Source: Pirellulales bacterium (GTDB taxonomy: Bacteria > Planctomycetota > Planctomycetia > Pirellulales > JADZDJ01). Taken from it: DNA of 64,000 nucleotides. The translations under genes and the position numbers were made by a program. Below are positions 3,993 to 37,284 of the stretch, piece by piece; positions within the stretch are counted from its first letter, which is position 1; each line of letters begins with the position of its first letter. The DNA is taken from contig OY970289.1 of the NCBI GenBank assembly GCA_963716135.1, positions 2,167,462-2,231,461 on the forward strand, given 5' to 3'. A model generated the notes under the pieces. The model was not told where the DNA came from, searched no databases, and was given only the letters and a program-made list of their open reading frames with translations.

Positions 3993-4066
3993 GGCGACGT
4001 AGCTCAGTTGGTTAGAGCAGCGGCTTCATAAGCCGCGTGTCGGCGGTTCGAGTCCGCCCGTCGCTA
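3993..4066 (+). tRNA. tRNA-Met, anticodon CAT (elongator type; a lysidine-modified tRNA-Ile2 cannot be excluded)
   Basis: Cloverleaf read by eye. Acceptor GGCGACG/CGTCGCT; D arm GCTC-AGTTGGTTA-GAGC; anticodon arm GCGGC-TTCATAA-GCCGC (CAT); T arm GGCGG-TTCGAGT-CCGCC; discriminator A. No CCA is encoded. Confidence 0.85.
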
Positions 4067-4154
4067 CTGGATATTTGGCGCGAAACGGCGCGCTACCAGC
4101 CTGGAGGCCGGGGCAAAACCGCAAGCGGAGTTCGAATGTTCGACAGGTTGTGGG

Positions 4155-7100
4155 CTACGGATTGAAATCGGGATTCGTGGCGGTGCCGTCCATGCCGTCG
4201 TTGTCGTCGGGATCGCCGCCGGCGCCGCCGGCGCCGAAGGCGACCGTGTTGCCGCTGTAAGTGTTGCCGGTGTTGACAAAGGTATCGTCGTGATGCACAC
4301 CGCCGCCGTCGGCATCTCCGCCATCGCCCCCCGTGCCGCCAGTTCCGCCGGTCGCATCGCCGCCGTTGCCACCATTGCCGGCCTTCGCGGAGTTGAAGGT
4401 GATTTTTGTCTGCGTGATGGTTAGCGGCACCGAGCTGTAGACGCCGCCGCCTTGAGCATCTCCGCCTTTGCCGCCTGCTCCGCCATCGAAGCCCGTGCCG
4501 CCGTCGCCTCCGGCACCTGCGGTGAGTGAGTTCTTCGAGATGGTGGAGTTGGAGATGTCGACGCTGCTGACGGCCTCGGTGGCGACACTGATGCCTCCCC
4601 CAATAGCCAGGCCAGCGTTCCCGCCCGCTCCGCCGGTACCGTCGGTGGCGTTGGCGCTGCCGCCTCCGCCCCCATTTCCGGCACGAGCGCAGTTGTTCGA
4701 AACGGTCGACTTAGTCACATTCAGGTTGTTCGCCCCACTGATGCCGCCCCCCGCACTGTTGCCGCCACGGCCGCCTGCGCCCCCCGCGACGGCGGAGGCA
4801 CTGGATGCGCCTCCGTCTCCGCCGGCGCCGCCGGTTGCGGAGTTGTTGGTGATGGTGGAATTGGTGATCGTCATGGCGCCAAGCGCAACGAGGCCGCCAC
4901 CGTCGGCGTATCCGCCCAGGCCGCCCACGTCGCCGGTGTCGCCGTCGCCGCCGTCGCCGCCGTTGCCTCCGGTGATCGAATTGCCGCACACCGTGGACTT
5001 TGTCAGAGTGACGTCCTGGTCCGCGGCGATACCGCCGCCTGTAGCCTGGCCACCGATGCCGGGTGCGCCGCCTTGATCGCCGCCAGTGCCACCCGCGCCT
5101 CCGTTGCCCCCCTTGAGCGAGTTTCCAACGAATGTGGAGCAGTTTGCGCTAAACGCGACGTCACTGAACACGCCGCCACCGCTTGCAAGGCCGCCTGCAC
5201 CCCCCTCGCCGCCGGTGCCAAGGTCGGGAGCGTTGCCGCCGTTGCCGCCGTCGCCAGCGCAGCCGGAGTTCTTCGAGACGTCGGAAGAGTTGATCTGAGC
5301 GCCGTCGCCGAACACGCCGCCGCCTTGAACGTGGCCACCGTCACCACCTTTGCCGCCGGTGCCGGGTTCGCCGCTGCAATCGCCGCCGGTGCCACCGTCG
5401 CCGCCGGCAAGCGAGTTCTTCGTGATGCTCGATTTGGTGATCGTCGGTTCAGAACGCGCCCACACTCCGCCGCCTTCGGCGTAGCCGCCGGCGCCGCCGT
5501 CGCCACCGGTGTTGCCATTGCCCCCCTTGCCACCGTCGCCGCCGTCGCCGCCGATCGCAGTGTTCAGACAGATTGTGGTATCGGTGATAACGATCACTGC
5601 GCCACGTTCGGAAGAGGTGCCGCCGCCGAGCACATCGCCGCCGTCGCCGGCATCGCCGCCATTGTTGATTCCGAAGGCGCCATTGCCGCCGTCACCACCC
5701 CGTGCGAAATTCTTCGACACTTCGGACTTAGTGAGCGTGAGTTGGCGTAGCGCGTCGATTCCGGCGCCGGTCACACCGCCTCCTCGGCCGGCTGTGCCGC
5801 TATCGTTGATATTTCCGCTGCCGCCGCCATCGCCGCCATCGCCGCCGATGGCACAATTGCCGTTGATCTTTGAACGCAGCGCGCAAACTTGCAGGCCGCG
5901 GATGCCGCCTCCGTTGACGAAGCCGCCGATGCCGCCCGTCAAGCCGGCGTTGCCCGCCTCGCCGCCGAAGCCACCATTGCCACCAGCGGCTAAATTGTTC
6001 AAGACACAGGTATCGGTGATGTTCACCGGGCCATCGCTGTAAATTCCGCCGCCTTCGGCGTTGCCGCCGTCGCCACCGGGTCCGCCTTCGGCGCCAGGGT
6101 TTTCGGCGCCATTGCCGCCGTCGCCGCCGATGGCTTTGTTGCAATTGACCACGCAATTATTCAGCGTGACTCCGGCGCCGGAGGCGACAGGTGTCGCAAT
6201 CACAACGGCCGGGTCCATGAAGAAGTTCACGTTGTAGATTCCGCCCCCCTGGGCATCGCCGCCTTTGCCGCCGGAGATGACGGAAACGACTTCGATGGTG
6301 AAGTCGCCGTCCTCTTCGGGGGTAACGCTGCCGCCTTGTGCGCCGTCGCCGCCGCAGGCGATGTTGTTCGAAACACTACTCTTGCAGCCCCAGACGGCGC
6401 CTTCGGCATAGATGCCGCCACCCTGTGCTTCGCCGCCATTACCGCCGGGCGTGCCGCCGTTGCCGGCTTTCGCCTCGTTGCAATCAACCGTCGATTTATT
6501 CAGCGAGACCGCGCCGAGCGTGGTTGGCTGCAACGTGACAAGGCCAAGCCCTTCGGGTATCTCGCCGCTGCCGACGAAGATACCGCCACCCCGTGCATCG
6601 CAATTGGTGGGCGCAGCAGCGCTGCCCGAGCCGTCGTTGCCGCCGATAGCGCGGTTGAAATTGACTTGCGAGCTATCGATGATTACCAGCGCCGGCGGAA
6701 TTGCCGGAGCCGATTTGGATTTGGAAGATTTGGAAGTCGTGGAGAATGTGGGCATGGCGAACTGGTTGTTGGCGACGTAAATGCCGCCCCCCTCGCCGTC
6801 GCCGGCACGTGCGCCCAAACCGTCACTTGCGGGCGAGGCACCGGTGCCACCGTCGCCGCCATCGCCGCCGCGCGCGGTGTTTTGATTGACCTTCGAGCAG
6901 TTTTTGACGCTGACGGCGTAGGTGAACGCTTGGACCGGCGTCGTTTTGACGGTCAAGTCGTGGGCCACGTTCAAGCCGACGAAGATTCCGCCCCCCTGTC
7001 CGTCGCCTCCAAAGCCTCCGTTTCCGCCAGACGTTGCGCCGTCGCCGCCTTTACCACCGTCGCCGCCCACGGCGCTGTTGCAACTGACCTCTGTACTACA

Positions 7101-8157
7101 GATGGTGACGGGCGCAGCGCCCAAATGCCGCCACCCGCGGCGTAACCACCGTCGCCGCCACTGGTGCCGTCGTCATCGGAGAGCCCTTCGGCGCCATCGG
7201 CTCCCTTGGCCAGATTTGCGCGACGAGGCAATTGGTCAGGGAAACCGGCGCGGTCGAAGCGATGCCGCCGCCGTACGCGTTGCCGCCTTGGCTGCTGAGG
7301 AAGCCGGCGTCGAGGGAGGTGCCGCCGCCGATCGCTCGGTTGTTCAGCACTTTGCTGCCGGTGAGCGTCAGGCATGGGATGTTCGTGGCATAGATGCCGC
7401 CGCCGTAGGCGTAGCCGCCATATCCGCCGCCGTCGAGGCCGTCGCCGCCGAGCGCCGAGTTGTATTGGACGGTGATACATTTGAGGGATTGTGTTCCGCC
7501 GTCGATGTACAAGCCGCCGCCGTAAGCGTTGGCGCCACTGCCGCCGCCGATCCAGGGGAGCATCGAGCCGGCTGCGCCCTGAGCGGTGCAACATTCGATG
7601 ACGACATTTTGCAGTGTGAGTTTTCCGCCGGTGCTGAGGATGCCGCCGCCATGTGCATCAGTTTCACCAGGGAAGACTCCTTCGGTGCCGTCGTCCTGCG
7701 CCAGACCGTTGCGGATGGTGAGATTTTTGAAGATGACGGTGACGCCGTCGAGAATTTGAAATACGCGATCGATCATTTGCGCGTCGATGATCGATTTGCC
7801 TGCGCCGGCGCCTTGAATCGTCACCTTGCGGCCGGACTGGGTGAGATCCAAATCCCCTTCCTGCGCGGCGTTCTCTTGCCCGTTGGAATTGGTGATCGAA
7901 AGGTTGTACACGCCTTTTTGCAGCGTGATCACATCGTCGCCGGCCGAGTTGTTCGCGCCGATGATGGCGTAGCGCAGCGAATGCGTGTCAAGTGGATCGT
8001 CCGGCGCGGTTGCCAACGGATTGTAATTCGCAAGCAGAGTCCGCAGCTCGAGCCATTCGATGCCGATGGGCCGAGATCGGTGCGGGCGGGCCTTTGCTCG
8101 ATTGAGCACGTGGAATCGAGAGTGGCGCGCACGAGAGAGCAATTTGCGAACTCGCAT
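4155..8157 (-). CDS. giant secreted Gly-rich repeat protein 1 (choice-of-anchor-Q-like / parallel beta-helix head plus GGxGGxGG...GGG[IVF] repeats); frame broken twice
   Basis: Fragments are ORF 7096-8157(-), then the frame of ORF 6971-7594(-) between about 7125 and 7215, then ORF 4155-7124(-). N-terminus: MRVRKLLSRARHSRFHVLNRAKARPHRSRPIGIEWLELRTLLA. Head domain: LRYAIIGANNSAGDDVITLQKGVYNL...EGDLDLTQSGRKVTIQGAGAGKSIIDA...RVFQILDGVTVIFKNLTIRNG. This is followed by dozens of units such as LTKSTVSNNCARAGNGGGGGSANATDGTGGAGGNAGLAIGGGIS. An AGGAGC Shine-Dalgarno sequence lies upstream of the ATG at 8157. Confidence 0.8.
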
Positions 8158-8209
8158 GGATATGCTCCTGAAGTATTTTCAAAGTTGCGAGAAGGATTCG
8201 GATCTAATA

Positions 8210-11200
8210 CTAGCCATCCACGTTGGGGTCGCCGTTGGTGCCTGGGTTGCCGGGGTTGCCGTTGGGGCTGCCACCGTCGCCGGCGTCGCCGGCATCGACC
8301 GTGTTGTTGGCGATGGTCGAGCCATTGTTGTTGACGGGTGAACCGAAGGCGCCGCCGCCTGCGGCATCGCCGCCGTTGCCGCCGTCGCCAGCGGTGCCGG
8401 AATCGCTATCCCCGCCCCGGCCGCCGTCGCCGCCGATGGCACTGTTGAAAGTGACCTTCGACTGGTTCACATCGATCGTTCCCAGCGAATACAAACCGCC
8501 GCCATGAGCGGCATCGGCGTCGCCGCCGCGGCCACCATCGCTGCCATTGGTTCCACTGCCGCCGTCGCCGCCGTCGCCTGAGATGGCCTTGTTCTTGGAA
8601 ACTTCCGACTTGGTGAGGGTGATGCCGTCAATGGCACAGATCGCGCCGCCACGCCCGTCGCCGCTGCCACCGCCGTCTCCGCCGGAATTGGAACCGCTGG
8701 CCGATGTGCCGCCGTTGCCGCCGTTGCCGCCGGTGGCCGTATTGCAATTGAGCGTGGAATTGGAAACTGTCACAGACATCACCACGTAGATGGCGCCCCC
8801 CTCGCCGCCGCCGCCGAAGCCGCCGAAGCCCCCGTCGAAATCGTCTCCCGTGTTATTTGCGCCGTTGCCGCCGTTGCCCCCCGTGGCACGGTTGAACGAG
8901 AGGGTTGATTTGCTCACGCACGAAGTGTCATGGGCCCAGACGGCGCCGCCTTGCGCATTGCCGCCGAAGCCGGTCGTGCGCGGAGCACTGCTGTCACCAG
9001 CATTTCCGCCGTTGCCGGCGGTGATGGCGTTTTGGCACAAATTGGAACCTGTGATCGTGGCAACTCTTCCCGCATAAACGCCGCCGCCGTCGGCGTCACC
9101 GCCCCGGCCGCCTGCGCCGCCATTTCCGTCGCTGCTTCCGCCGTTGCCGCCGTTGCCGGCTTTGAGCGTGTTGAACGAGAGTGTGGAGCAACTGATGTTA
9201 ACATCCGTTGCGGCGTAGACTCCGCCGCCCTGAGCATAGCCGCCGTCGCCGCCGCCACCGCCATTGCCTTCGCCGCTGGCATTTCCGCCATTGCCGCCGT
9301 TGCCGCCCTTGGCCGTGTTCGAACTTACGCAGGATCCGACAATATTCACAAATTCGCCTGCGACCAAATTCGGGGCAATTGGCTCATTGTTGTCCTCCGG
9401 AACAAAGTTCGAGAAGATACCGCCGCCCTGCGCACGGCCGCCGGCGCCACCGGCGCCGCCGGAACCGTCTGTGCTGCCCGCGCCTGCGCCTCCGTCGCCT
9501 CCCTTGGCAAGATTGCACGACACACTCGAGTTGATGATGTCCATAAAACCGCTGACAGTGGAAACCTGCTTCGTTGTAATGGCCAGCGCGGGGGCTGCGG
9601 CTAAGCCGCCGGCGAAGATGCCGCCCCCTTGGGCTTGGCCGCCGTTACCGCCGTCGCTCGCGTCACCGTCAGTGGAAGAGCTCAAACCATCCGCGCTGCG
9701 CCGCCGATGGCGCAGTTGTTGTTGACGTTCGATTTGCTCACGAAGACAAGTGCCGACGAGGTTTGGGTGCTCGTGGTGATCGCCGGGTTCACACGACGAC
9801 TGTTGATGTTGCTGTAAGTTCCGCCACCGGCTGCATCGCCGCCATCGCCACCCTTGCCCGGCTCGTCGCCGACTCCGCCCGCGCCGCCGTCCCCCGCGAT
9901 GGCGCTGTTGCAGTTGACTTCGGAGCGCGTGAGCGTCAGTACCTGCGTGCCGTCCGGCGTCACACTGGCTAGGAAGGGGATCAAGGGAATTTCGATGAGC
10001 CCTGTACGAATACCGCCGCCTTGAGCAGTACCGCCATTGCCGCCGTCGCCGCCGCCGGTGTCGTTCTGGCTCGCGCCGCCCATGCCACCGGCGCCGCCTT
10101 TGGCGCAGTTGCCTGAAACTTTGGAATAGTCAACTGAAGCGGACTCGATTGCAATGATACCGCCGCCATAGACACTGCCACCTTGTCCTCCCGTTCCACC
10201 TTGGAAGAAGCTGGTTCCCCCCGTGCCTCCCGCGCCACCCTTGGCAAAGTTATTACTGACGCTGGAACTGTTACATACGATGACGCTCCCATCGCAGGCG
10301 ATGCCGCCACCGAAAACCGAGCCGCCCAAGCCGCCCAGGCCGCCAGTCTCGGCGTCGCCGGCGGGTCCGCCGGTTCCGCCATCTCCGCCAACGGCGCAAT
10401 TGGAGTTCACGGTCGTCTTGTCGATCGTGACGCTTCCATCGAAGAAAACGCCGCCCCCGTCAACCTCGCCGCCGTCGCCGCCTCGACCGCCATCTTGCCC
10501 GAAGGTCTGGCCATCGCCCCCCGCGCCCCCGTCGCCGCCGAAGGCGCCGTTGCACGAAATGTCAGACGACTTGGCCAGGAGGGCGCCAGTGCTGTAGATG
10601 CCGCCTGTGGCATCGCCACCCGATCCGCCGTCGCTGCCGTCGGCTCCGTCGCCACCCTCGCCGCCAAACGCTTTGTTGAAGTTGACGACGCAATTAATGA
10701 GCGTGACATCGGCCGCCGCAGCAAAGGATGCCGCGGTAGGCAACACTTCGAAGCTTAAGTTGAAGATTCCGCCCCCCAGGGCATCGCCGCCGCCGCCGCC
10801 GGGAATGGGGTCGGGCCCGCCATTGGGAAAGCCGAAACCCGCTGCGCCGTCGCCGCCGCACGCGACATTCTTCGAAACACTCGTCTTGTTGGCCCAGACG
10901 GTTCCTTCCGCATAGATGCCGCCGCCAAAAGCTTCGCCGCCAAAGCCGCCGGGCGAGCCGCCGTCTCCCCCCTTGGCCTCGTTGCAATCGACGGTGGACT
11001 TATTGAGCGAAACTGCGCCGAGCGTTGTCGGCGTCGACGTAATGGTGGTCAACTCGTTGTCGATTTCGACACTCCCGACGAAAATTCCACCGCCGTGGGC
11101 GTTGCTATCGAAGGGGAGATCGCCTATGCCGCCGTCGCCGTCGTTGCCGCCGATGGCGCGATTGAAGTTCACTTGCGAGCTATCGATGATCACCAGCGCC

Positions 11201-13048
11201 GGCGGAATTGCCGGAGTAGGCGGCGCTTTGGATTTGGAAGATTTGGAAGTCGTGGAGAGTGTGGGAAAGGCGAACTGGTTGGTGGCAGCGTAAATGCCGC
11301 CCCCCTCGCCATCGCCGGAGCGCGCACCAAACCGTCTGTTGTTATTTCGCCGGCGCCGCCATCCCCGCCGTCGCCGCCGCGCGCGGTATTCTGATTGACC
11401 TTCGAGCCGTTTTTGACACTGACGGCGTAGGTGACCAGTTGAACTGGCGCCGTGTTGACGGTCAAAAACGGGTTCAAGTTCAGGTTGACATAGATGCCGC
11501 CGCCTTGTCCGTCGCCGCCGGCGCCCCCATCTCCGCCAAGGACGAAGCCCTCGCCGCCATCGCCGCCTCTGCCGCCCAGCGCGGAATTGCGACTGATGTC
11601 GGTACAACTGACGGTGACCGGCGCTGAGGCCCAGACGCCGCCGCCGGCTGCCGAACCGCCGTCGCCCCCTTTGCCGCCGGCATCTTTCGCCGACCCACCT
11701 TGGCCACCGTCGCCGGCGCATGCGAGATTACTGCAGACGGTCGATGAAGTAATGGTGAGGCCAGCCAAGGCGAAAATACCGCCTCCTTCTGCAACGCCAC
11801 CGTGGCCCCCCATGCCGCCGGTGTCGGAATTTTCAGTTCCGTCACCGCCGTCGCCGCCATCGCCGGCATGCGCTATGTTACCCACAAAGCAGCAGTTGGT
11901 GGCGCAGACCTGCAGCAGGCTATACAGACCGCCGCCGCGGGCATCGCCGCCGCCTCCCGCCGCGCCGCCGTTCGCGTTCGTGGAGTCGCCGCCGTTGCTG
12001 CCGTCGCCGGCGATCGCGGCGTTTTGCGAGACGTTGGAATTGTCGATCGAAAACACGGTGGACGAACTTATAGTTTTGGCCGTCAAATCGAAGAGCGGGC
12101 CTCTTACGTAGATACCGCCGCCAAAGGCATCGCCGCCGAGGTTTCCGTCGCCGCCATTGCCGGATTCGCTGTCGGAGTCGCCGCCGTCGGCTGCGCAACC
12201 TGCGTGAGCGAGGTTGCAAACGATGTTCGACTTGCTGATGCAGACGGTGGTTCCTTCGCTGTAGAGGCCGCCGCCGAAAGCGCTGCCGCCGGCGCCGCCT
12301 TGTTGACCGTCGGGACTGTCGGAATCGCCGTCGTCGCCGGCGACGCCGTTGCCGCCAAGCGCTTTGTTGTTTTGCAGCGTGCTGGAAACGATTTTCAACG
12401 TGGGCCCGTCGGAGTAGATTCCGCCGCCGCGCACGCCAGCTCCAGAAGCGCCAGCTACATCTCCATCGGCGCCAAGAGCGGTGCAACATTCGATGACGAC
12501 GTTTTGCAAAGTGACGCACCCGTTGCTGAGAATGCCGCCGCCATAGGCGAACGTGTCACCGGGGTACGCGCCTTCGCTGCCGTCGTCCTGCGCCAGACCG
12601 TTGCGGAGCGTGACGTTTTTGAAGATGACGGTGACGCCTTCAAAAATCTGGAAGATGCGATCGATGCATGCAGCATCGATGATTGATTTGCCTGCGCCTG
12701 CGCCCTGAATAGTGACCTTTCGGCCTGATTGAGTGAGATCCAAATCCCCTTCATAGGCCTGGTTCTCTTGGCCGTTGGAATTGGTGATCGAAAGTTTGTA
12801 CACGCCTTTTTGAAGCGTGATCACGTCGTCGCCGCCGGAATTGTTGGCCGCAATGATGGCGGCGCGCAGACTGTGGCTATTGCCGGCATCATCGGGCGCG
12901 GAAGCCCAGGGATTGAAGTTCGCCAGCAGCGTTCGCAGCTCCAACCATTCCACGCCGATCGGTCGGCCGCGTCGCAAGCGCAGCTTTCGATCGATTCGAT
13001 AGGCTAGTGCCCGATTTGCGCAGAACGCAACGGATTGCGAGCGGACAT
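8210..13048 (-). CDS. giant secreted Gly-rich repeat protein 2 (paralogue of protein 1); frame broken at least twice
   Basis: Fragments are ORF 11190-12977(-), ORF 9682-11721(-) (real only from about 11328 downward; its Arg-rich N-terminus is out of frame) and ORF 8210-9685(-). Junctions are near 11330 (..GEITTDGL / GARSGDGEGGGIY) and near 9690 (NVNNNCAIGG / ..SADGLSSSTDGDASDGGNGG). The leader and head are the same as in protein 1 (RRGRPIGVEWLELRTLLANFNPW...LRAAIIAANNSGGDDVITLQKGVYKL...). The track start is TTG at 12977. An ATG at 13048 preceded by GGGAGAA would match the leader of protein 1 better, but needs one more frame correction near 13008. Confidence 0.75.
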
Positions 13049-13499: not shown

Positions 13500-13676
13500 A
13501 TGAAGTGGTTATGCCGGTTCCTACGGTCAGAAGACGGTCCTACCGCAGTTGAATATGCGGTAATGCTCGCGCTGATTATTTTGGTCTGCCTCTCGGCGAT
13601 CATGACCATCGGGCAACAAACTGCTAGCAGCTATCAGAACTCGGCTGCGTCGATTTCCAGTGCGATGGGCAGTTAA
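13500..13676 (+). CDS. flp: Flp-family type IVb pilin
   Basis: ORF 13455-13676(+), with the probable start at Met16 (ATG 13500). MKWLCRFLRSEDGPTAVEYAVMLALIILVCLSAIMTIG... contains the Flp motif (G/xTAxEY followed by a hydrophobic helix). Length is 58 aa. Confidence 0.85.
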   Translation: MKWLCRFLRSEDGPTAVEYAVMLALIILVCLSAIMTIGQQTASSYQNSAASISSAMGS

Positions 13677-15594: not shown

Positions 15595-17501
15595 TCATTG
15601 CGGATAAGCCATCAGAATTTCGTCGGGATGCACTCCGGCGATCGAGCGGAATCCGCCGTCGGCAATCGTTTCGCCCAGCTTTGTCACTGCGCGGAAGTCG
15701 CGATCCTTGGGCGGCTTGCCGGTGAGCTTGCGCGTGAGATCCTGGCACAACACGTCGGCGGCGCCGCGAATCACTTCATCCTTGCTGCGGGCGCGCGTAG
15801 AGGCTGACGCACAAAATCGTCACCGCATCCTGCAATTGCTGTGAAAGGTACGCCATGCGGCACTGGCGATCTGCAAGCGCCAGTTGATGCTTCGCCATTA
15901 CGCCGTCGATCACTAGCGGCGAACGTTGCAGGCGATCGGCGGCGAATTGCGCGTGCTCGCGCAGATTCTTGGGCATATCGGGCAATTCGGCCTTCGAGTG
16001 GAATCGCAGTTTTTGGCCGATGACCCATTTCAAATATGGACCTACCGCGCCTTTCAATGCCCAGGCGTGGAGCGGATTCAATGGATTGGGCTTTTTGATT
16101 TTCGCGGCGGCCAACGCCTTGCCGATCGGCTCGAAATATTTCATGCCGTGCTGCTTCACCAGCGACTTGAAGAAAGCCATGCCGAGCATTTCCCCTTCGC
16201 CTTCGTAGATGCAGGGGGCGAGGAACTCATGCACGTTGTCGCCGAACATGTGGCCGTGCAAGAACGAGCGGCCGCCGTGCGTTTTCATGAACAGCTCGAC
16301 GGCGGCTTCCTTTCTGCGCTTCGCTGCCGAAGATTTTGGCGATGACGCATTCCATCTCGCCGCGGTAGCCTTGATCCAACAGGCCGGCGCACCATTGCAC
16401 CAGCGCATCGCAGCCGACAATCAGCGCGGCCATGCGGCCCAACCGACGCTGCACCAGTTCGCGCGAAGCGATTTCCGCGCCGTAAGTGCGGCGAAAATGC
16501 GCCCAAGGAATCATGCTGGCCATCATCAATCGCATCGTGCCGGCGGCATTGGCGCACAGCGCGACGCGGCCCAAGTTCAAACCGTGGTAGGCGATCGTCA
16601 ATCCGTCGCCGCGCGGAGGGTTGAGCAGGTTGTCCGCAGGCACGCGATAATTCTTGAAGACGATGCCTTGGTTGTACGTGTGCTTGAGCGCATACAGCCC
16701 GTACTTGCGCAATTGAAACTGTTCATTCTCCTGCTGCGGCAGATCGACGACGAGCACCGCGGGGCGATTTTCAATCAAGCAGACCAGGCCTATCGTGCGC
16801 CCCGGCACGACGTTGGTAATAAACAGTTTTTCGCCGTTGACGACGTATTCATTGCCAACCCGCTCAGCGCGCGTGCGCAGGGCTGTCAGATCGGAGCCGG
16901 CGCAGGGTTCGGTCAGCGCGAACGCCGACAATCGTTCGCCGCTGGCTAGCGTCGGCAAGAATCGCTGCTTTTGTTCTTCGGTGCCGAAGGTGCGCACCGG
17001 ATCGACCGCGCCGATGCAGCCATGCACCGAGGCTAATCCGGCGACCGTGGGATCGAGCATGGCCATCCGTGTGAGAAACGACGCGAACGAGGCGAACGGC
17101 GCGCCGCTGCCGCCGTACTTCGGGTCGACTAAAAGGCCCCAGTAACCCGCTTCTCCTAATTCGCTCAGTACTTTGGAAGTGATCTTTTGATTGGCGTCCA
17201 AAAGCGTGCCGGCCTCAACGTGGCGGCGAACCACGGCCAGCGAGTTCTGCATCACCTTTTCCACCGCCGGAGGAGTTTGCGGCGGCTGGCTGGCGAACAG
17301 TTCGGTCGGCAAGCCGCGCTCCCAGACGGCGCGGTGCACGGGGCTGTTGACCGTTTGGAATCGGGCGGCGAACAGGGCCTCCACCTGATCGTCGGCCTTG
17401 TCGACCGCCCCCATGCGGCGAGCTTCCTCTTCGCTCTTGCCGCCCAGCTTCATGGCGGTTTCGGCAAAGGAGGCTTCGGGGGCTTCAACGGAGTTGGTCA
17501 T
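15595..17501 (-). CDS. long acyl-CoA dehydrogenase family protein; frame broken twice
   Basis: Fragments are ORF 16227-17501(-) (...[17 protein letters not shown]...[12 protein letters not shown]...NGEKLFITN...), ORF 15776-16420(-) ([43 protein letters not shown]...) and a tail that I translated myself down to the TGA at 15597-15595 ([32 protein letters not shown]...DEILMAYPQ). Junctions are near 16310 and 15795. Confidence 0.8.
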
Positions 17502-23813: not shown

Positions 23814-26800
23814 ATGAGGCGAGGGTTCGTGCGTTCTGTGGCTCTGTGTTGCGGCTTGATCGTGTCGATCAATCAAGCCGTGCTGCCGCTTGCGCACGCC
23901 GCCACCAACACGTGGAATGGCAACAGCGCGACAACCAGCGACTGGACCGACAGCACGAATTGGACCGGCGGCGTGCCCACCAACGACAGCACTGCCGACG
24001 TGATCTTCGGCGGCACCAACCGGCTGGATTCCACGGTGGATACGAACAATCCCTGGAGCATTAAATCGATCACCTTTAACAACACCGCCGGCGCGTTTGA
24101 AATCCAGTTGAACGCACTGCAAATCGACTCCGGCGGCATCACGAACAATAGCACTGAGACGGAAACTTTCGACAACGATATCACCGTCGGTGCATCGCAA
24201 TCGTGGAACGCTGCCAGCGGCGACCTTGTGTTCAACGGTTCGATTACCACAAATGTTTCACTAACCGTGACCGGCGCTAACGACACCACGTTCACAGGTG
24301 CATTTAATGGAAATGGCGGTTTGATCAAGGATGGCGCCGGAAACGCTGATGATGTCGGGTGATGCCAGCGGGTTTTCCGGCGGCGTGACTCTCACTGCGG
24401 GAACATTGAAGGCGGGCTCTGATCCGGGGCTTCCAACAAACGGCTACACGATCAACGGCGGAATACTCGACCTGAACACACACGATTTGACCATCAAAGG
24501 AATCAACGGCAGCGGCGGCGAAGTCAAACTTAATTCCGCTGATTTGACGCTAAATGGAACCGGCAATACGTTCTATGGCGGCGTGATCAGCGGCAGCGGC
24601 GGTTTGATCAAGAGTGGCACCGGACTACAGGAACTCACGGGGGCCAATACCTATACCGGCGGAACCACTGTCACGGCAGGCACCCTGCAAGGCACCGCCG
24701 GCGTCGGCTTGCAGGGAGATATCCACGTCTCCACCGGCGCCACGGTGGCTTTCAGCCCGCAATCAGGCACGGGAACGTATGCCGACGTCGTGGACGGTGA
24801 CGGCACGGTGAACAAAGTTGGCGGCGGCACGGTGATCTTCACCGGCGCGAATACATATACCGGAGGAACCACGGTTACCGGCGGCACCCTACAAGGCGAC
24901 ACGGACAGTTTGCAGGGGGGCGATGCAACTCGAAAGATCGGCATCGCTTCCGGCGCGAATCTGTCGTTCACTCAAAATGCCGACGGCGCGTTTGCCGGAA
25001 CCATCAATGGAACCGGCGGAAACGTGATCAAAGACGGCATCGGCACCGTCTCGCTGACCGGTGCCAATACGTACACAGGGGCCACGTCGATCAGAGCGGG
25101 CACGCTGCAACTGGGCGACAATACCGCGACGGGATCGCTTGATTCCGCGTCGGAGGTGAACATTGCGTCGGGAGCCACGCTGGCCTTCAATCGCAGCGAC
25201 GCGACTCCGGTCGACTTCAATAACAACATCGTCGGCGCCGGCGGGTTGCATCAGGTGGGCACGGCCACCATCGTTCTCGGTGGAACCAATACGTTCACCG
25301 GCGCATCGACCATTGAAGCCGGAACCACCTTGCAAGTCGGCGACGGCGCCACCAATGGCACCTCGGGCTCCGGCGCGATTCAGGACAACGGCACGTTGAT
25401 ATTCGACCGCAGCGACACGGTGACCGCGGACAACAGCATCAGCGGCACCGGCGTGCTGGTAAAAAACGGCGCCGGCACCTTGATTCTCGGCGGCGTCAAT
25501 TCCTATACCGGCGGCACGTCGGTCGCCGCCGGCACATTGCAGGGGACGACGTCGAGCTTGCACGGCAACATCGCCACGGCGGCCGCCACCAGCGTCATCT
25601 TCGATCAGACCACCACCGGCTCTTATGCGGGCGTCATCAGCGGATCGGGATCAGTGGCCAAAAACGGCACGGGCACCGCCGAGCTCTCCGGCGCCAGCAC
25701 CTACACCGGCGGAACCACGGTCAACGACGGAGTGCTCAACGTCAACGGAAGCGTGGCCGGCAATGTCTTTGTCACCGGCGCCGGAACGTTAGGCGGCACC
25801 GGAACGGTCGCCGGAAACGTGGACAACGAAGCCACGGTCGCCCCGGGCAGCGTCGGCAGTCCGATCGACACGCTCCACGTCGGCGGCACGTACACGAACG
25901 AAAGCGGCGCCACGCTCCAGGTGAATATCGATTCCAATCAAAACGGCTCGGTGCTCGACGCCACCGGCGCCGCCACGATCAACGGGGGAACGGTGCTGGT
26001 GAATTCCACCACCGGATCGGCCAATGCGGGCCAGAAGTTTACCTTCCTCACCGCCAGCTCCGTGACCGGCACCTTCGACGACGCGACCACCCAAAACCTT
26101 CCTCCGTTCTTGATTCCGATTTTGGGCTACACCAGCGACACCGCCTTTTTCACGCTGCTGCGCAACGGCGAAACGTATGAAGCCGTCGGCAGAACATTCA
26201 ACCAGCGCACCGTCGGACGCTATTTGGACCAGATTTCGCCCACGGCCAGCGGCGATCTGCAAACGGTTTTCGACGCGCTCAATTCGATCGACGATCCTGA
26301 GCTGCGCTTCGCTGAAAGCCAAATGGCCGGGGCGCTGCACGGCACCTTGGGACAAATCGGCGTGCAAAATACCACGTTGATCGTGGGCCAAGTCGCCCAG
26401 CGGCTGCGCTCCTCCTCGATGACGCCGACCGTCGATCCGTGCTGCTGCCAATGTAATGGGTGCAACCCGGGCATTTGCAGCGGATGTCTCGAACAAGGTC
26501 TTTTCGCGCCGGTGCCGCCTTGTGGCGGAAGTTGTTGGACCGGCTGGGCGCAAGGCTTTGGCCTGGGAGGCGGCGCCAAATCGGACGGCAATGCCGAGGG
26601 GGTCAACTACAGCATGGGCGGCGTCCTGGCGGGCGTCGAACGCTGGTTGGACGACAGCCGGCTGTTGGGCTTCTATGGCGGATACGTCGGCAGCACGGTC
26701 GAGCGGTCCGCGCCTCGTTCGTTTATCAACGGCGGCCACTTCGGCGGCTATCTCTATGCCGACGATTGCTTCAACTATTGGACCTTGATGAACGGTTACG

Positions 26801-27369
26801 AATTCGATTCCTACGCGACCCACCGCACGATCCAATTCGACGACATCGACCGCGAAGCCTCGGCCAATTACAACGGCTGGCAGGCCTATGTCTACGCCGA
26901 ACGCGGCGTCAGCTACGAATCGTGCGGCCGGCTGTTCCAGCCCTTCGTGGCGCTGCAGTATCTGTATTTGCGGCAGAACAGCTTCACGGAACATGGGGCC
27001 AATTCCATCGACCTGGCCTCTGGCGGCGCGAACACCAATTCGCTGCGCAGCTTGCTGGGCGCGCGATACCAGTGGGCTTGGATGCATCGCACCTGCCGCC
27101 GCTCGTTCCCCGAAGTTCACGCTTACTGGTTGCATGAATACATCGATTCGCATTCGCTGGTGGACGCCACCTTCTCGCCGGTCCCGGAAAACGGCGGCAC
27201 TCCGTTTATTGCCCATGGCCTCGATCTCGGCCGCGATTGGGCCGTCGCGGGCGCCAGCTTCACGTGGGAAATGCACGACTGCTGGAGCCTGTTCATCAAC
27301 GGCGACATCCAGACGAACAACCAGGCCACGCTGTATCTCGGCTCCGGCGGCTTGGGCCACGTGTGGTAG
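23814..27369 (+). CDS. classical (type Va) autotransporter with autotransporter-associated beta-strand repeats; frame broken once
   Basis: In ORF 23613-24362(+), the start at ATG 23814 gives MRRGFVRSVALCCGLIVSINQAVLPLAHA (signal peptide). ORF 24331-27369(+) carries many repeats of G.GTL.L.GANTYTGGTTV.AGTLQ. The C-terminal ~270 aa form the beta-barrel domain, with alternating aromatic and Gly strands ending ...LYLGSGGLGHVW. The frame break is at the A-run 24341-24343 (LIKDGAG / TLMMSGD). Confidence 0.85.
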
Positions 27370-29887: not shown

Positions 29888-30616
29888 TTACCGCAGCCGG
29901 CGATTCTTGAAGGCTGCAAGTGAGATGCCGGCCAGCGCGATTAACACGAGGCCACTCGGTTCCGGCACGGCGGTGATGTTGTCCATGCCAAACGAAATCT
30001 GCGGGCCGGTGCTCAAAAACTGGTCACCGACCAGCACGGCGCTCGTGGCGTCGAGGATGCGGAAATCGAGCACGTTGGCCTTCAGCGTGCTGAACGCCGG
30101 CGGAGCGTGCGCTGGGCTGCCGGCGCTGACGGCCGTCATGTTGGCCGCATCGAAGAGGAACGTAACCGCGTGCCAGTTGCCGTCGGAGGGCAAGCTGTAC
30201 GGAGTTGTCGATACATAGCCGGCGGAATTGTTGGCAGTGCCCTCGCGCACCGCCAGCCGCATCGACAAGCTATTCACGGCGCCAGTGGCGTTGGATGCCG
30301 GGCTCATCAGGCCCAGCGTAATGGCGGTGATGTCGCTGAAATCGCCCAGCCACTGCACGTCGTTGGAGGCCAACAGTCGCGGGGCATTGGAGGCTCCACC
30401 CGAATTGAACTGCAAATATTGATCTCCAGCGCCAGCGGGGCCGCCAGTGCTGATAATCTCCTGGCCGACAGCCATCATGGCCGAGCCGCCGCCGAGCCAA
30501 TTGTTCAATTGCCCATCGTTAAAGTCATCGACTTGGCCGACGGGAATGACGGATGCCCGTGCGGTCAATGTTGCCGCGAGAGTAAAAACGATTGCGAAGC
30601 GAAAGTAGTTCATCAT
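29888..30616 (-). CDS. PEP-CTERM sorting-domain protein (putative exosortase substrate)
   Basis: ORF 29888-30694(-), with the start taken at MMNYFRFAIVFTLAATLTARA (30616). The C-terminus ...ITAVPEPSGLVLIALAGISLAAFKNRRLR shows VPEP, a TM helix and a basic tail. Confidence 0.85.
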   Translation of the reverse strand: MMNYFRFAIVFTLAATLTARASVIPVGQVDDFNDGQLNNWLGGGSAMMAVGQEIISTGGPAGAGDQYLQFNSGGASNAPRLLASNDVQWLGDFSDITAITLGLMSPASNATGAVNSLSMRLAVREGTANNSAGYVSTTPYSLPSDGNWHAVTFLFDAANMTAVSAGSPAHAPPAFSTLKANVLDFRILDATSAVLVGDQFLSTGPQISFGMDNITAVPEPSGLVLIALAGISLAAFKNRRLR

Positions 30617-30626
30617 TGCAGGTTGC

Positions 30627-31343
30627 TCATTGAGGGCCGGGCCAGGGACTATCGGGAACTTTCCAAACAATATCGGGGCGATCGGGAATGCCAATGCTGC
30701 CGCAGCCGACGTAATCGGCGCTATACGCTTTCAAGTGGCCATCCAAAAAAGCCAGGTTCACCATCCCCGCGTGCCGCGCGACCGGGCTGTATTTCTGATC
30801 CGAAGGGAGCAGGGAGCATTGCGTGCCGATGCCTTCCGTCATGAACACCATGGTCTTGCGCGAGCCGACGCGGTCGATGTGGTCCGGCTTGGCGCCCTTG
30901 GGCGTCGAAAGCCACATGTTCATGCCGTAGGCAAAGTATTCCGGCAGGCCTTCGTCGCGCTGGATGGCGTCGGTTAGATCGGGACACATCCACACGCCGC
31001 CGGCGCCCGGGTGCGGCGGCTGATTGGATTGGATCAGGGTATTCAGCGGCGCCTCGTGCAGGAACGCCGGCAAAGCGTTGAACCAATCGCTGGAGCGGGA
31101 AAACGAAACGGTGGGATAGCTGACGCCCTGGCCGCGTCGCGGAAGATAGCCGTAGTGCGCCGAGGCAAACTCCTGGACCGCCAGGGCCCATTGGCGCAGG
31201 TTCGACTGGCACGCCATGCGCCGTGCCGCGGCCCGAGACTGCTGGATCGCCGTCAAAAGGAGCGAAATCAAGATCGCCATGATCGTGACGGCGACCAGCA
31301 GTTCAATTACAGTGAAGCCGGCGGATTTTCGGGCCGAAGTCAT
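30627..31343 (-). CDS. DUF1559 / H-X9-DG protein with prepilin-type N-terminal cleavage/methylation domain
   Basis: ORF 30627-31589(-), starting at Met83 (ATG 31343). [30 protein letters not shown] is a pseudopilin-type N-terminus. The C-terminal [13 protein letters not shown] is an exact H-X9-DG motif. Confidence 0.85.
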
Positions 31344-31410
31344 CAAGGGGACCGTTATGCACGCTTGGATATAGCGCTCCGAATTTACCCCATTCACGCT
31401 CGGTGTCAAC

Positions 31411-32495
31411 ATGGCCAAAGCCACCTGGGAAAAAGACTGGACCGTCGGTTTGAGAGCCTGGATCGAACGCCGCGGCCAGGCCGTGATGGGGCAGGGGAGG
31501 GCGGAATTGCTCGAGGCCATCGGCCAGCGGCGCAGCATCACCGCCGCCGCCAAAGCCGCGGGCATGTCGTACCGCCGGGCCTGGAACATGATCCAGGAAG
31601 TGAACCAAGCTGCGGGGGAACCCTTGGTCGAAGCCGCCGTGGGGGGCGTGAAAGGGGGCGGCGCAACTCACCGAGCGCGGCCGCTTCGCCGTGGACGTCT
31701 ATCGCCAGCTTTACGCCGCGCTGCACGATAGCGCCGCCGGCGTGCTGCGCCGCATCATCAACCCCAGCGAGGACGCGCTCCCCTGCATCCATCTGGCGGC
31801 GGCGATCAGCCTGCAGGAAGTGATCGGCCAACTGCTGGCGGAATATGCGCTGGTGCGCCCGGCGGTTCGGATCCGCGCGGTGTATGGGGCCTCGAATGAG
31901 CTGGCCGCCCATTTGCTGGCCGGCGCCGGGCGATCTGTTCCTATCAGCCGAGGTGTCGGTGATCGATCGCTTGGATGCGGCGGGGATGCTCATTGCGCGA
32001 TCGCGCCGCATCGTTGCCGCCAATAGCCTGGTGGCAATTGGGCAGCAGGCAAATCGCAATGTGCGCAAGCCGGCCGACCTGTTGAAAGCAAACATCCGCC
32101 ACGTCGCCTTGGCCGAGCCGGCCTGTCCGCTAGGCAAGTACTCGAGAGAATATTTGCGATCCATCGGCATCTACGATGCGCTTTTGCCCAAGGTGATGCA
32201 CGTGGACAATTCGCGAGCGGTGCCGGCGGCCGTGGCATCGGGCGCGGCGGAGGCCGGCGTGGCCTTCGCCAGCGATGCCGCGCGAGCCGACGGCTGCCAG
32301 GTGCTGTTCCATGTGCCGCCGTCGCAATCGAGCGCCGAGTATGTGGCGGCAATTCTCCGCAGCGGACAGCAATTAACCGAATCGCGATTGCTGCTGGAGT
32401 ACATCACTTCGCCCGGTGCGGCAAAAGTGTTCCGTCGCTGCGGATTCCAAGCGGCCAAAGGGGCGCACAGACTTGGAAAAGCTCGCGCGCAGTAA
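31411..32495 (+). CDS. ModE-type wHTH fused to a ModA-like molybdate/tungstate periplasmic-binding-protein domain; frame broken twice
   Basis: ORF 31411-31731(+) reads ...[57 protein letters not shown], which is ModE N-terminal-like. It continues as [17 protein letters not shown]... in ORF 31691-32026(+) and as ...[21 protein letters not shown]...[18 protein letters not shown]...AGVAFASDA... in ORF 31845-32495(+). Junctions are near 31655 (G-run) and 31925. Confidence 0.65.
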
Positions 32496-36670: not shown

Positions 36671-37284
36671 AGTAATCTTGCCGATGGAGGTCAAGGGAAC
36701 AGGCTGGCGGTGTCAAACCATCCACGAGTACAGCGTCGGCCTCGGCCGCAAAATGCGGGAAAGCGATTAGATGGCCTTGACCGCTGTTCGAGCCGACGGC
36801 GGGTTCTTCAAGGCGTGGTTACCCCTCTCCTACCCGATACTTCACGATAAACGGCGCGCCTGAAGTTGTCAAACTACCGCCAGTTCCCGCAAATGCTACG
36901 CAGCAGACACCCGGTTAGATCGCGTCATTTCGAAGCTTTTGTGGACAAATTGAAACATTAAGTCGGAACGACTGCCATAAAACGGACGAGTCAAACGCGC
37001 ACAACTGGACTCGCCTGGCCGCGCCGGAATTTCCGCGGAGCTGATGTCTGAGTTTTGGGCGTAATTTGGCTGGATGGAAAGTGTGTACAGTGCAGCGGAG
37101 CGGTCTTCTCCACGGCCGTCTGGCTCAGCCGGATGCTGGCAAGGCAGCTTTTCTGGGCAAGTCTGTGTCAAAGTTTGCCGATTATTCAAGGGATAGGGTC
37201 TGCGCAGAGATTTCAGGCGCATTGGCGCATTGGATCTCGGCCAGGTAAGCCACGGATAGTGATAATTTGAGCGCTTTGGAGAAT

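Follow-up and report, generated by a model that had tools for sequence, protein, structure and literature searches.

Among the closest described systems are the CSLREA/RbtA proteins (TIGR04214, TIGR04212; PDB 9cdu/9cdv), in which an N-cap helix with an xSLRxAI motif is followed by GGGI...N.A rungs, and for which the structure of the RbtA beta-helix domain has been solved (PMC12643943). In the Pmp repeats (Chlam_PMP PF02415, POMP_repeat TIGR01376), the beta-helix rung is built from a GGx[ILV] strand and an xxN.A strand, while the choice-of-anchor-Q domain (NF041518) is a 58-aa C-terminal cap (NGGPT..DQRG..DIGAFE). With regard to glycine-rich sequences, PGRS domains have been modelled as two-layer polyglycine-II sandwiches (PMC9436101), and runs of GGx triplets are a recognised signature of polyglycine-II bundles (PMC9436101; PMC13243192). 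The RTX beta-rolls are Gly/Asp-rich, acidic and extracellular, and are built on a GGxGxDxUx nonapeptide. The Planc_extracel (PF07595) signal reportedly goes back to Studholme in 2004. The consensus of this planctomycete cell-surface signal is RRLxxExLExRxLLA; in Tuwongella, it was found on 52 proteins, among them eight of the ten longest, and 20 of the motif proteins were found by proteomics, 8 solely in the SDS-soluble fraction (PMC8567305).

The window analysed here, a stretch of 64,000 nucleotides, contains two giant paralogous genes with the following features:

8210-13048, reverse strand: gene A, the upstream paralogue, with about 1614 aa after bridging and a TAG stop at 8210-8212
12921-12965, reverse strand: leader motif of A, RPIGVEWLELRTLLA, of the planctomycete cell-surface signal type
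12032-12920, reverse strand: head of A, with 67% identity to that of B
8261-12031, reverse strand: repeat region of A, with about 29 units and a conserved K/S/P-rich insert (TSKSSKSKAPPTPAIPPALVIIDSS)
8158-8209, reverse strand: spacer between A and B, 52 nt, with a Shine-Dalgarno-like AGGAGC at 8164-8169
4155-8157, reverse strand: gene B, the downstream paralogue, with about 1333 aa after bridging, an ATG at 8157 and a stop at 4155-4157
8029-8073, reverse strand: leader motif of B, RPIGIEWLELRTLLA, after a 28-aa basic stretch without a hydrophobic core
7216-8028, reverse strand: head of B, an N-cap helix with a CSLREA-like motif (HSLRYAIIGANN) and the first beta-helix rungs
4206-7215, reverse strand: repeat region of B, some 22 regular units, each about 48 aa long (GGGI..vtiT.S.vs.N.A.GGxGGxGG..GGxGGxGGxA)
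4158-4205, reverse strand: C-terminal tail of B (GGDPDDNDGMDGTATNPDFNP region), predicted to be disordered and without a sorting signal

A and B are confirmed as real, conserved genes, which upholds the original prediction. Their lengths agree with the roughly 1600 and 1330 aa then proposed, the same-strand arrangement and the spacer with its AGGAGC were recovered, and the C-terminal tails and heads cited at the time match the bridged translation. The bridged proteins contain 26-27% Gly and 23-30 Cys and are acidic, with a pI of about 4.1. They are best explained as lineage-specific tandem duplicates in a Pirellulales planctomycete; a 300-nt DNA block, 83% identical, is common to A (head) and B. 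Since the spacer has a Shine-Dalgarno-like site but lacks a terminator-like one, the two genes are probably co-transcribed.

Searches with the repeat region returned 676 representatives at E<=1e-3, with identities of 36-50% and like units in the inspected examples. As anticipated, none of the characterised families matched A or B from end to end; both proteins fall within a known beta-helix family, in a large branch of it that is uncharacterised. Orthologues of gene A are found in the related loci L002 (5574-9947) and L001; the B head is 89% identical to its L002 ortholog, and the K/S/P-rich insert of A also occurs in B and in the Phycisphaerales protein P0121. Closest to the repeat region among long proteins are choice-of-anchor-Q proteins, which have like Gly-rich units and, in many cases, an A/B-type leader. 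Most relatives carry the cap at their end, and it is present in nine of nine long relatives, whereas A, B and the L003 homologue lack it and end directly after the last unit. The likeness of the head to choice-of-anchor-Q heads noted earlier does not hold, as this domain is the C-terminal cap. A and B are probably capless, polyglycine-II-decorated versions of a known kind of beta-helix surface protein.

The heads, of about 250 aa each, are predicted to be right-handed beta-helices of the CSLREA/RbtA type. The AF2 model of the B head has a pLDDT of 90.1 and a pTM of 0.85, and its Foldseek matches are right-handed beta-helices. A head profile matches the solved RbtA domain 9cdu at E 7e-19, named CSLREA-domain proteins match the head at E 1e-9 to 1e-13, and of 73 head homologues, 32 contain CSLREA_Nterm, 5 POMP_repeat and 5 RbtA. 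A and B have in common with the CSLREA/RbtA proteins the N-cap helix with xSLRxAI and the GGGI...N.A rungs behind it. Despite this homology, A and B themselves fall below a match to either CSLREA/RbtA model and have His where CSLREA has Cys. Their tag is N-terminal and planctomycete-specific instead of a Sec signal with GlyGly-CTERM, their rungs bear Gly-rich hairpins of 25 aa, and their predicted rod is three to four times longer. The likeness to chlamydial Pmp proteins proposed originally stood as a kinship at family level with 'outer membrane repeat'/Pmp-like proteins, given the domains in the head homologues mentioned above, and the rung of a GGx[ILV] strand and an xxN.A strand is common to both. 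It did not stand as a motif match: literal GGA[ILV]/FxxN motifs are very scarce (3/0 and 3/3), and there is neither a profile match nor an autotransporter barrel in A and B. Furthermore, the Gly-rich hairpin makes the A/B unit twice the length of the Pmp unit.

With GGG[IVL] as the anchor, A has about 29 units and B about 26, most of them 45-54 aa long, with the consensus GGGI.......T.S....N.A.GG.GG.GG.....GG.GG.GG.A., so the glycine-rich units of 40-50 aa described before are indeed present. Their DNA is no more than 60-75% alike from unit to unit, with a spacing in multiples of about 141-150 nt, and that divergence marks them as old repeats rather than a product of the assembly. In the AF2 model covering the C-terminal 439 aa of B (4158-5474; pLDDT 93.8, pTM 0.90), each unit has four short strands and then about 25 residues that are ordered but not beta. 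Together, the head and repeat models (pLDDT 90 and 94) and their Foldseek matches bear out the predicted parallel beta-helix, and the repeat block is modelled as ordered rather than disordered. The repeat model matches the nine-PPII-helix antifreeze protein 7jjv (probability 1.00, target-normalised TM 0.63-0.75, identity 22%) as well as the beta-helices of AlgG, AlgE4, pertactin and Ag43; whole-model TM-scores to solved structures are low (<=0.23). This single Foldseek target and the sequence pattern suggest that the GGx runs could form polyglycine-II/polyproline-II helices, with AlphaFold possibly over-confident. For the PGRS proteins the earlier comparison was sound, but calling it compositional said too little: as in PE_PGRS and the springtail/snow-flea antifreeze proteins, GGx triplet runs of two to three turns are modelled as hairpins of such helices. 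Conversely, the A/B hairpins would alternate 1:1 with beta-helix rungs and not form a free-standing domain, A and B have no PE domain and no type VII secretion, and the likeness is one without demonstrated sequence homology.

In the proposed architecture, the mature proteins would be long, acidic, unbranched rods of right-handed parallel beta-helix, opening with a CSLREA/RbtA-type N-cap and continuing with 26-29 units. Each unit would comprise one rung of about 22 aa (GGGI..vtiT.S.vs.N.A) and one hairpin of about 25 aa with two GGxGGxGG runs; from the geometry, hairpins in register would build a flat two-layer polyglycine-II sheet along the rod. The rod would close with a short, acidic, disordered tail and have no choice-of-anchor-Q cap or further C-terminal domain.

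The Gly-rich halves could also be flexible surface loops of a Pmp-like beta-helix that is otherwise ordinary, or make up a second, irregular rung, with the polyglycine-II assignment an artefact of AlphaFold and Foldseek. DSSP gives these segments no regular structure, two clean (GGx)>=2 runs are found in only 40 of 73 units, and the linker joining the runs varies from 0 to 8 residues. AlphaFold, moreover, over-predicts order in regular repeats. However, pLDDT is 93-99 throughout the Gly-rich segments and below 50 over the last 16 residues of the B tail, the 7jjv bundle is matched at full probability, and a strict GGx triplet phase is kept in A, B, L003 and distant relatives, which makes loops or an irregular rung an unlikely reading.

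With regard to export, the planctomycete-type leader noted originally fits the published consensus. RPIG[IV]EWLELRTLLA agrees with eight of ten specified positions and shows one conservative change, lies N-terminally, behind a basic stretch, in proteins of great length, and has only two sites, the A and B leaders, in a six-frame regex scan of the whole 64 kb. The assignment is made from the literal consensus, because the Pfam PF07595 model reported no match to A or B even at E<=10. The same motif is present in 48 of 123 long relatives. The B leader reaches a maximum Kyte-Doolittle(9) value of 1.0, compared with 2.9 for the classical signal peptide of the relative P0133, and since there is no hydrophobic core, a classical Sec or Tat signal would not be used. 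A and B would thus be made with a basic leader ending in the cell-surface signal and leave the cell by the route common to all proteins with the RRLxxExLExRxLLA motif. The missing explanation for export noted earlier is not peculiar to the pair and applies to every PF07595-type protein. Profile searches of A and B agree with the reported absence of barrel, PEP-CTERM, LPXTG or other sorting signals; the autotransporter (24331-27369, PATR and Autotransporter domains) and the exosortase EpsH (35720-36694) noted elsewhere in the window were both found. Once outside, the proteins would be either released or non-covalently retained in the envelope.

A different route would apply if A and B were RTX-like, Ca2+-binding type I substrates that fold outside the cell and use the C-terminal tail as secretion signal. 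Their acidity, the prevalence of Asp as x in GGxGG (30-36%), the disordered, acidic, uncleaved-looking tail and the true RTX-type repeats that follow the beta-helix in the relatives P0220 and P0226 are consistent with this. Against it, A has a single GG.G.D.U. nonapeptide and B has none, HemolysinCabind/RTX profiles match nothing in either protein, a conserved N-terminal signal motif exists, and ABC exporter, HlyD and TolC are unmatched among the Pfam-scanned ORFs of the window, several ORFs being matchless or outside the scan. The Cys content is also unusual for type I substrates. The RTX-like calcium binding suggested earlier is contradicted by the sequence, and we consider type I secretion very unlikely.

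The head might, alternatively, be a carbohydrate-active enzyme of the epimerase, lyase or esterase beta-helix type that the rod only presents. Its best Foldseek matches are the AlgE4 mannuronan epimerase, pectin methylesterases and pectate lyases, and an EPS/exosortase locus lies 20 kb off. Yet the TM-scores of 0.2-0.35 and identities of 11-14% indicate generic beta-helix similarity, no Pfam or NCBIfam enzyme family is matched, and the nearest solved relative by sequence is RbtA, a non-enzymatic surface protein; an enzymatic head is highly improbable. The most likely role of A and B would be that of non-enzymatic surface fibres or adhesins. The explanation as a whole (intact tandem duplicates, motif-led export, a beta-helix rod with polyglycine-II hairpins, and a surface fibre or adhesin role) is held to be fairly probable.

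As called, gene A consists of stop-free pieces in three frames (12977-11190, 11721-9682, 9685-8210) and gene B of 8157-7096 and 7124-4155. The frame discontinuities number six and are not all internal, two of them being in the leader of A:

12978-13010, reverse strand: two frame discontinuities in the A leader; the ATG frame stops at TAG 13004-13006
11325-11332, reverse strand: A frame break 1, one G lost (TTGGGT to TTGGT), a 1-nt gap against L002 at about 11329
9690-9705, reverse strand: A frame break 2, between NNNCAIGGA and ADGLSSSTDG
7210-7216, reverse strand: B frame break 1, AAAA to AAA, a 1-nt gap against L002 at about 7213
7114-7122, reverse strand: B frame break 2, GGGG to GGG, a 1-nt gap against L002 at about 7116

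Each of the four internal breaks is a 1-nt gap relative to unbroken relatives among Pirellulales MAGs, and most breaks are the loss of a single base in a short homopolymer. Putting back the base at B break 1 regains the N.A motif (VAQNLAKG), and A break 2 is absent from L001, where ORF 4179-6374 is continuous (NNNCAIGGAGAAGLSSSTDG). The A leader has a surplus T at about 12982 compared with L002, and its L001 counterpart is unbroken (MSARKPFRRAHKSRFTVLNRSKVRPHRARPIGVEWLELRTLLANF). The start codon of A is uncertain because of the two discontinuities there; the first is also present in L002 and may be genuine, and A would then start from TTG 12977 with a very short leader. Similar breaks affect the UDP-GlcNAc 2-epimerase (CCCC to CCC) and UDP-glucose dehydrogenase (G7 to G6) genes of the window, and the nearest genomes are MAGs with contigs named in contig_N style, which we take to be nanopore assemblies. 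All six breaks are best explained as sequencing or assembly errors and not as biology, with both genes intact in the organism.

That A and B are pseudogenes in decay, or phase-variable genes that homopolymer slippage has turned off, is extremely unlikely: the six discontinuities in 8.9 kb are denser than elsewhere in the window, the L001 and L002 homologues are likewise split into several called ORFs and one leader discontinuity is shared with L002, but break sites vary by assembly and those of the window are intact in some relative, housekeeping sugar-nucleotide genes show identical single-base losses, the restored frames have no in-frame stops or larger deletions, dN/dS against the L002 ortholog is 0.18 in the head and 0.34-0.35 in the repeats, and L003 (9914-13906) holds an intact 1330-codon homologue of gene B. 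Apparent frame breaks were also seen in the acyl-CoA dehydrogenase and SBP genes of the window, at sites located short of base resolution. G/C runs of at least six are sixfold denser in the A/B pair than in the rest of the window.

Genes A and B, the upstream and downstream members of a minus-strand pair of paralogues (13048-8210 and 8157-4155, respectively), are predicted from their sequences and structural models to encode long beta-helix rods with a known planctomycete surface signal, and they may serve as surface fibres or adhesins. The original prediction of two giant Gly-rich repeat proteins holds as an observation and is partly right in its interpretation; the choice-of-anchor placement and the likeness to RTX repeats and to the literal chlamydial Pmp motifs do not hold. 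In this conserved pair, two connected questions of planctomycete biology come together in a clear-cut form. The first concerns the export route of very long surface proteins with a non-hydrophobic RRLxxExLExRxLLA leader, and the second a large unnamed subfamily of beta-helix proteins whose rungs each bear a Gly-rich insert (E<=1e-3, 676 cluster representatives). The value of the pair lies mainly in the structural hybrid proposed below and in the export question for this leader class.

On the minus strand, A is spread over three stop-free segments in three different frames (13073-11193, 11727-9685 and 10129-8213) and B over two (8178-7099 and 7172-4158), all of them 20-29% Gly. Joined across the junctions, the translations reach 1614 and 1333 aa, in agreement with the sizes of ~1600 and ~1330 aa first proposed, and contain 26-27% Gly, 10% Ala and 7% each of Asn, Asp and Ser/Thr. 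The stop codon of A (TAG, 8210-8212) and the start codon of B (ATG, 8157) are 52 nt apart, with AGGAGC at 8164-8169 ahead of the latter. A scan of this spacer found no terminator-like site, so co-transcription of both genes is likely. Promoter and terminator scans gave results at chance level, and Rfam returned nothing at the genes except the neighbouring tRNA-Met (CAT), which lies on the opposite strand ~90 nt past the B stop (3993-4067, plus strand; Rfam 70.5 bits, also called by ARAGORN). Divergent from A, across a spacer of ~450 nt, a small plus-strand ORF at 13500-13676 (MKWLCRFLRSEDGPTAVEYAVMLALIILV...) can tentatively be assigned by its motif to the Flp-type pilins. The plus-strand ORFs over 4.1-13 kb, such as 6922-8334 (470 aa), were rejected as genes: their translations are Arg/Pro/Ala-rich, and they appear to be shadows of a coding strand rich in GGC/GCC, with its GC-rich Gly codons, and should not be called genes.

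A and B form a tandem duplicate, and in the organism both genes are intact. Their heads, the ~250-aa regions following the leader, are 67% identical, and the whole proteins ~38%; at the DNA level, blocks of 79-90% identity cover the heads and a middle segment, with an offset of ~4.5-4.9 kb. Among the homologous loci from related assemblies, the tandem pair is found in the window and in L002 only, L001 and L003 being single copies. The L001 homologue lies between IS110-family transposase genes on both sides (367-1436 and 6843-7628), and the single L003 copy is followed by a Ser/Thr-kinase-like gene.

The internal frame breaks of both genes are sequencing errors, not biology. Each of the four corresponds to the loss of one base:

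~11329, minus strand: break in A, TTGG(G)T, one G lost
~9700, minus strand: break in A, one base lost at about this position
~7213, minus strand: break in B, CAAA(A)T, one A lost
~7116, minus strand: break in B, TGGG(G)C, one G lost

When the window is aligned to the syntenic L002 with MAFFT (83-87% nucleotide identity), it shows 1-nt gaps precisely at 11329, 7213 and 7116, and the 1-nt gaps of L002 itself fall at other positions. Putting the A back at 7213 makes the unit motif VAQNLAKG reappear in B. With regard to the ~9700 break, an intact ORF of L001 spans the site, giving NNNCAIGGAGAAGLSSSTDG, and the L003 homologue is unbroken over 1330 codons. Decay into pseudogenes or phase variation would also leave broken frames; both were rejected, as the breaks are intact in relatives, dN/dS is low and the same kind of loss affects housekeeping genes. 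Relative to L002, dN/dS amounts to 0.18 in the head and 0.34-0.35 in the repeats, which indicates that A and B are under purifying selection. Frame-broken housekeeping genes are found in the window at 54560-54700, 55900-56450, 16230-16420 and 31652-32492. They include a UDP-GlcNAc 2-epimerase, whose two pieces match Pfam model positions 2-128 and 125-346 (CCCC read as CCC, ~54607), and a UDP-glucose dehydrogenase (G7 read as G6, ~56375); an acyl-CoA dehydrogenase and an SBP_bac_11 gene are apparently broken too. The whole window carries single-base indel error of the homopolymer kind. The relatives' genomes are MFD MAGs whose contigs bear contig_N-style names, and we assume these to be nanopore assemblies. 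G/C homopolymers of at least 6 nt are sixfold denser in the pair than elsewhere in the window (1.91/kb vs 0.31/kb), and this density can account for the surplus of breaks in A and B. Gly-rich, GC-rich genes in such MAGs are fragmented through homopolymer errors, and because of this splitting they are missed by gene callers and domain databases.

The leader of A presents two further discontinuities (12978-13010). The frame opened by ATG-13048 ends after MSARNPLRSAQIGH, and one surplus T is present at ~12982 relative to L002; the intact leader of the L001 homologue reads MSARKPFRRAHKSRFTVLNRSKVRPHRARPIGVEWLELRTLLANF. The first discontinuity (...QIGH / LNRSK...) is common to the window and L002 (5735-5760), absent from L001 and adjoins a CGATCG palindrome. 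Two readings are possible: a basecalling error that recurs systematically at what may be a methylation site, or a true change, which would have A start at TTG 12977 (MRRGRPIGVEW...).

The planctomycete-type leader noted at the outset is well supported in both proteins. Translated in all six frames, the window contains RPIG[IV]EWLELRTLLA at only two sites, those of A and B, and RPIGIEWLELRTLLA and RPIGVEWLELRTLLA agree with RRLxxExLExRxLLA at 8 of the 10 specified positions, plus an I for L. This motif (Pfam PF07595) was reportedly put forward by Studholme et al. in 2004 as a planctomycete-specific export signal. At E<=10, hmmscan gave no PF07595 match for A, B or the L003 homologue when run on their first 82 aa; this profile is very short, and weak matches are discarded by the HMMER filters. 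The leaders lack a hydrophobic core (maximum Kyte-Doolittle(9) of ~1.0, vs 2.9 for the classical signal peptide of a relative) and thus do not belong to the Sec or Tat type. Of 123 long proteins related to the repeat region, 48 carry the motif. In the subcellular proteome of Tuwongella immobilis, it was found on 52 proteins, among them 8 of the 10 longest; 20 were detected, 8 of these exclusively in the SDS-soluble fraction (PMC8567305). By analogy with these proteins, A and B may be exported to the cell surface (PMC8567305). Literature searches retrieved no paper identifying the export machinery for proteins with this motif, and the unexplained route is therefore a property of the whole leader class and not of the pair.

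Several secretion classes can be set aside. Autotransporter and two-partner secretion were rejected for A and B, in which no translocator or TPS domain was found: Autotransporter and TPS profiles gave no match, and the last 16 aa of the B model are disordered. The window does encode, as first noted, a bona fide autotransporter and an exosortase system. The former is complete (24331-27369, plus strand, 1012 aa), and combines six PATR repeats with an entire beta-barrel domain, the sole barrel in the window; unlike A and B, it has its own barrel, and it shares no sequence kinship with them. The exosortase belongs to an EPS-type locus ~20 kb from the pair:

35720-36694, minus strand: exosortase EpsH, EPS-type locus
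34691-35716, minus strand: Wzz chain-length determinant, EPS-type locus
33400-34767, minus strand: ParA/tyrosine-kinase-like ATPase, EPS-type locus
30627-31589, minus strand: N_methyl and DUF1559 protein, near the EPS-type locus
29891-30730, minus strand: ORF with a weak PEP-CTERM match (E 0.002) at its C-terminus, near the EPS-type locus

Exosortase sorting of A and B was rejected given the absence of a C-terminal PEP-CTERM signal; there was no profile match, and their tails are acidic and without a hydrophobic segment. LPXTG and type IX profiles gave no match either, and the claim that A and B lack a known C-terminal sorting domain stands, the profile scans being empty. RTX or type I secretion fails in the same way: the GGxGxDxUx nonapeptide (PF00353) occurs once in A and not in B, no RTX profile matched, and the analogy drawn from the GGDGGDGG runs is lost. 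Ca2+ binding is possible from the sequences, which are acidic (pI ~4.1), with Asp as the most frequent x in GGxGG. The 23-30 Cys residues, often at fixed rung positions, fit an extracytoplasmic location, as a weak clue. The Pmp likeness finds no profile match (PF02415/TIGR01376, E<=1) and its tetrapeptides hardly occur in literal form, with GGA[ILV] found three times in A and not in B, and FxxN three times in each.

By sequence homology, A and B can be placed in the CSLREA/RbtA/choice-of-anchor-Q superfamily. A phmmer-type search with B 1-314 yielded 138 relatives, several of them named CSLREA domain-containing protein or predicted outer membrane repeat protein, and some bearing Chlam_PMP or Beta_helix Pfam domains; the named CSLREA proteins are matched by the head at E 1e-9 to 1e-13. 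Among 73 aligned head sequences, TIGR04214 CSLREA_Nterm was found in 32, choice_anch_Q in 11, and RbtA and POMP_repeat in 5 each. The window proteins themselves gave no NCBIfam match to TIGR04214 CSLREA_Nterm or TIGR04212 RbtA, their motif being HSLRYAI or HSLRAAI. The AlphaFold2 head model, built on the head alignment (pLDDT 90.1, pTM 0.85), shows a helix at 61-70 (HSLRYAIIGANN, a CSLREA-like cap) followed by short-strand rungs. Every Foldseek match of this model in the PDB is a right-handed parallel beta-helix, with a TM of just 0.2-0.35 (AlgE4, pectin methylesterases, pectate lyases and tailspikes). [quoted passage not shown] A Por_Secre_tail inside the head was dismissed as noise (sub-threshold E of 0.08-0.1).

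Anchoring on GGG[IVLF] delimits ~29 units in A and ~26 in B, mostly of 45-54 aa, and the consensus of 54 units from A, B and one homologue reads GGGI.......T.S....N.A.GG.GG.GG.....GG.GG.GG.A. The unit DNA copies are 60-75% alike and spaced by multiples of ~141-150 nt; Tandem Repeats Finder reports only short GGx-coding arrays of 9-27 nt, as the 48-aa units are too diverged for detection. This divergence speaks against a recent array produced by collapse or mis-assembly, and the units are genuine, old repeats. Neither Pfam nor NCBIfam gave a match above threshold to the five ORF pieces, the leaders or a 318-aa repeat block, and no end-to-end match to a characterised family was obtained. A HMMER search with the 989-aa ORF of B against 1.84 billion cluster representatives yielded the 676 mentioned, of which 128 remain at E<=1e-10 and just 4 at E<=1e-30, the few close relatives being located on fragmentary MAG contigs. 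The common relatives with Gly-rich units are 36-50% identical and ~400 to 2600 aa long. Those inspected combine a planctomycete-type leader, a CSLREA-type head and GGxGGxGG...GGGLY...N.A units with NGGPT..DQRG..DIGAFE, followed by RTX-like GGxGNDxL repeats or Ig-like modules. NGGPT..DQRG..DIGAFE is the 58-aa C-terminal element NF041518 choice_anch_Q (NCBIfam), present in 9 of 9 long relatives. No piece of A or B matched NF041518, and neither DQRG nor DIGAxE occurs in A, B or the L003 homologue, all of which end after the last unit and a short tail; the choice-of-anchor-Q likeness had been sought in the head, the wrong end of the protein. A and B are a capless subgroup of a large unnamed beta-helix subfamily with a Gly-rich hairpin on every rung.

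The AlphaFold2 model of B 895-1333 (44 sequences; pLDDT 93.8, pTM 0.90) predicts in each unit four short strands within ~20 residues, then ~25 non-beta residues at pLDDT 93-99. Disorder is limited to the last 16 residues, and the high pLDDT over the units speaks for the ordered beta-solenoid first proposed and rules out, at the level of the model, a disordered PGRS-like region. AlphaFold can be over-confident on repeats. Foldseek gave weak whole-model PDB matches to the beta-helices of AlgG, AlgE4, pertactin and Ag43, and, against viral structures, weak generic beta-helix matches with no gp38-type match. The match to 7jjv, a springtail antifreeze protein that forms a nine-helix polyproline-II bundle, reached a probability of 1.00 and a target-normalised TM of 0.63-0.75 at 22% identity. 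In PGRS domains and antifreezes, GGx runs have been assigned to polyglycine-II (PGII) bundles or sandwiches (PMC9436101, PMC13243192). Together with the strict phase of the GGx triplets in the two runs of each unit, the 7jjv match and this literature suggest that the Gly-rich half of each unit is probably a PGII hairpin.

Packed PGII helices lie ~4.8 A apart. As this spacing equals the rise per beta-helix rung, the modelled hairpins could line up along the rod in a two-layer sheet. Tentatively, and with considerable doubt, the repeat region may be read as a hybrid solenoid, in which a right-handed beta-helix would bear a PGII hairpin on each rung, stacked into a flat two-layer sheet. At the 4.8 A rung spacing, this sheet of PGII hairpins would run unbroken over 14-16 nm, and the protein would be exported via machinery that reads the RRLxxExLExRxLLA signal. 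Literature searches found no report of beta-helix/PGII hybrids. If the hybrid exists, a fold considered typical of mycobacterial PGRS domains, springtail antifreezes and phage gp38 tips would turn out to be a frequent component of planctomycete surface proteins as well, with hundreds of relatives. A correct PGII assignment would widen the known distribution of a rare fold and provide a regular, well-predicted scaffold for structural work. The repeat series of both proteins is interrupted by a Lys/Ser/Pro-rich insert (TSKSSKSKAPPTPAIPPALVIIDSSQVNFNRAIGGNDG; ~11130-11330 in A and 6620-6820 in B), which shows 87-90% nucleotide identity between the two genes and is recognisable in a Phycisphaerales protein, P0121.
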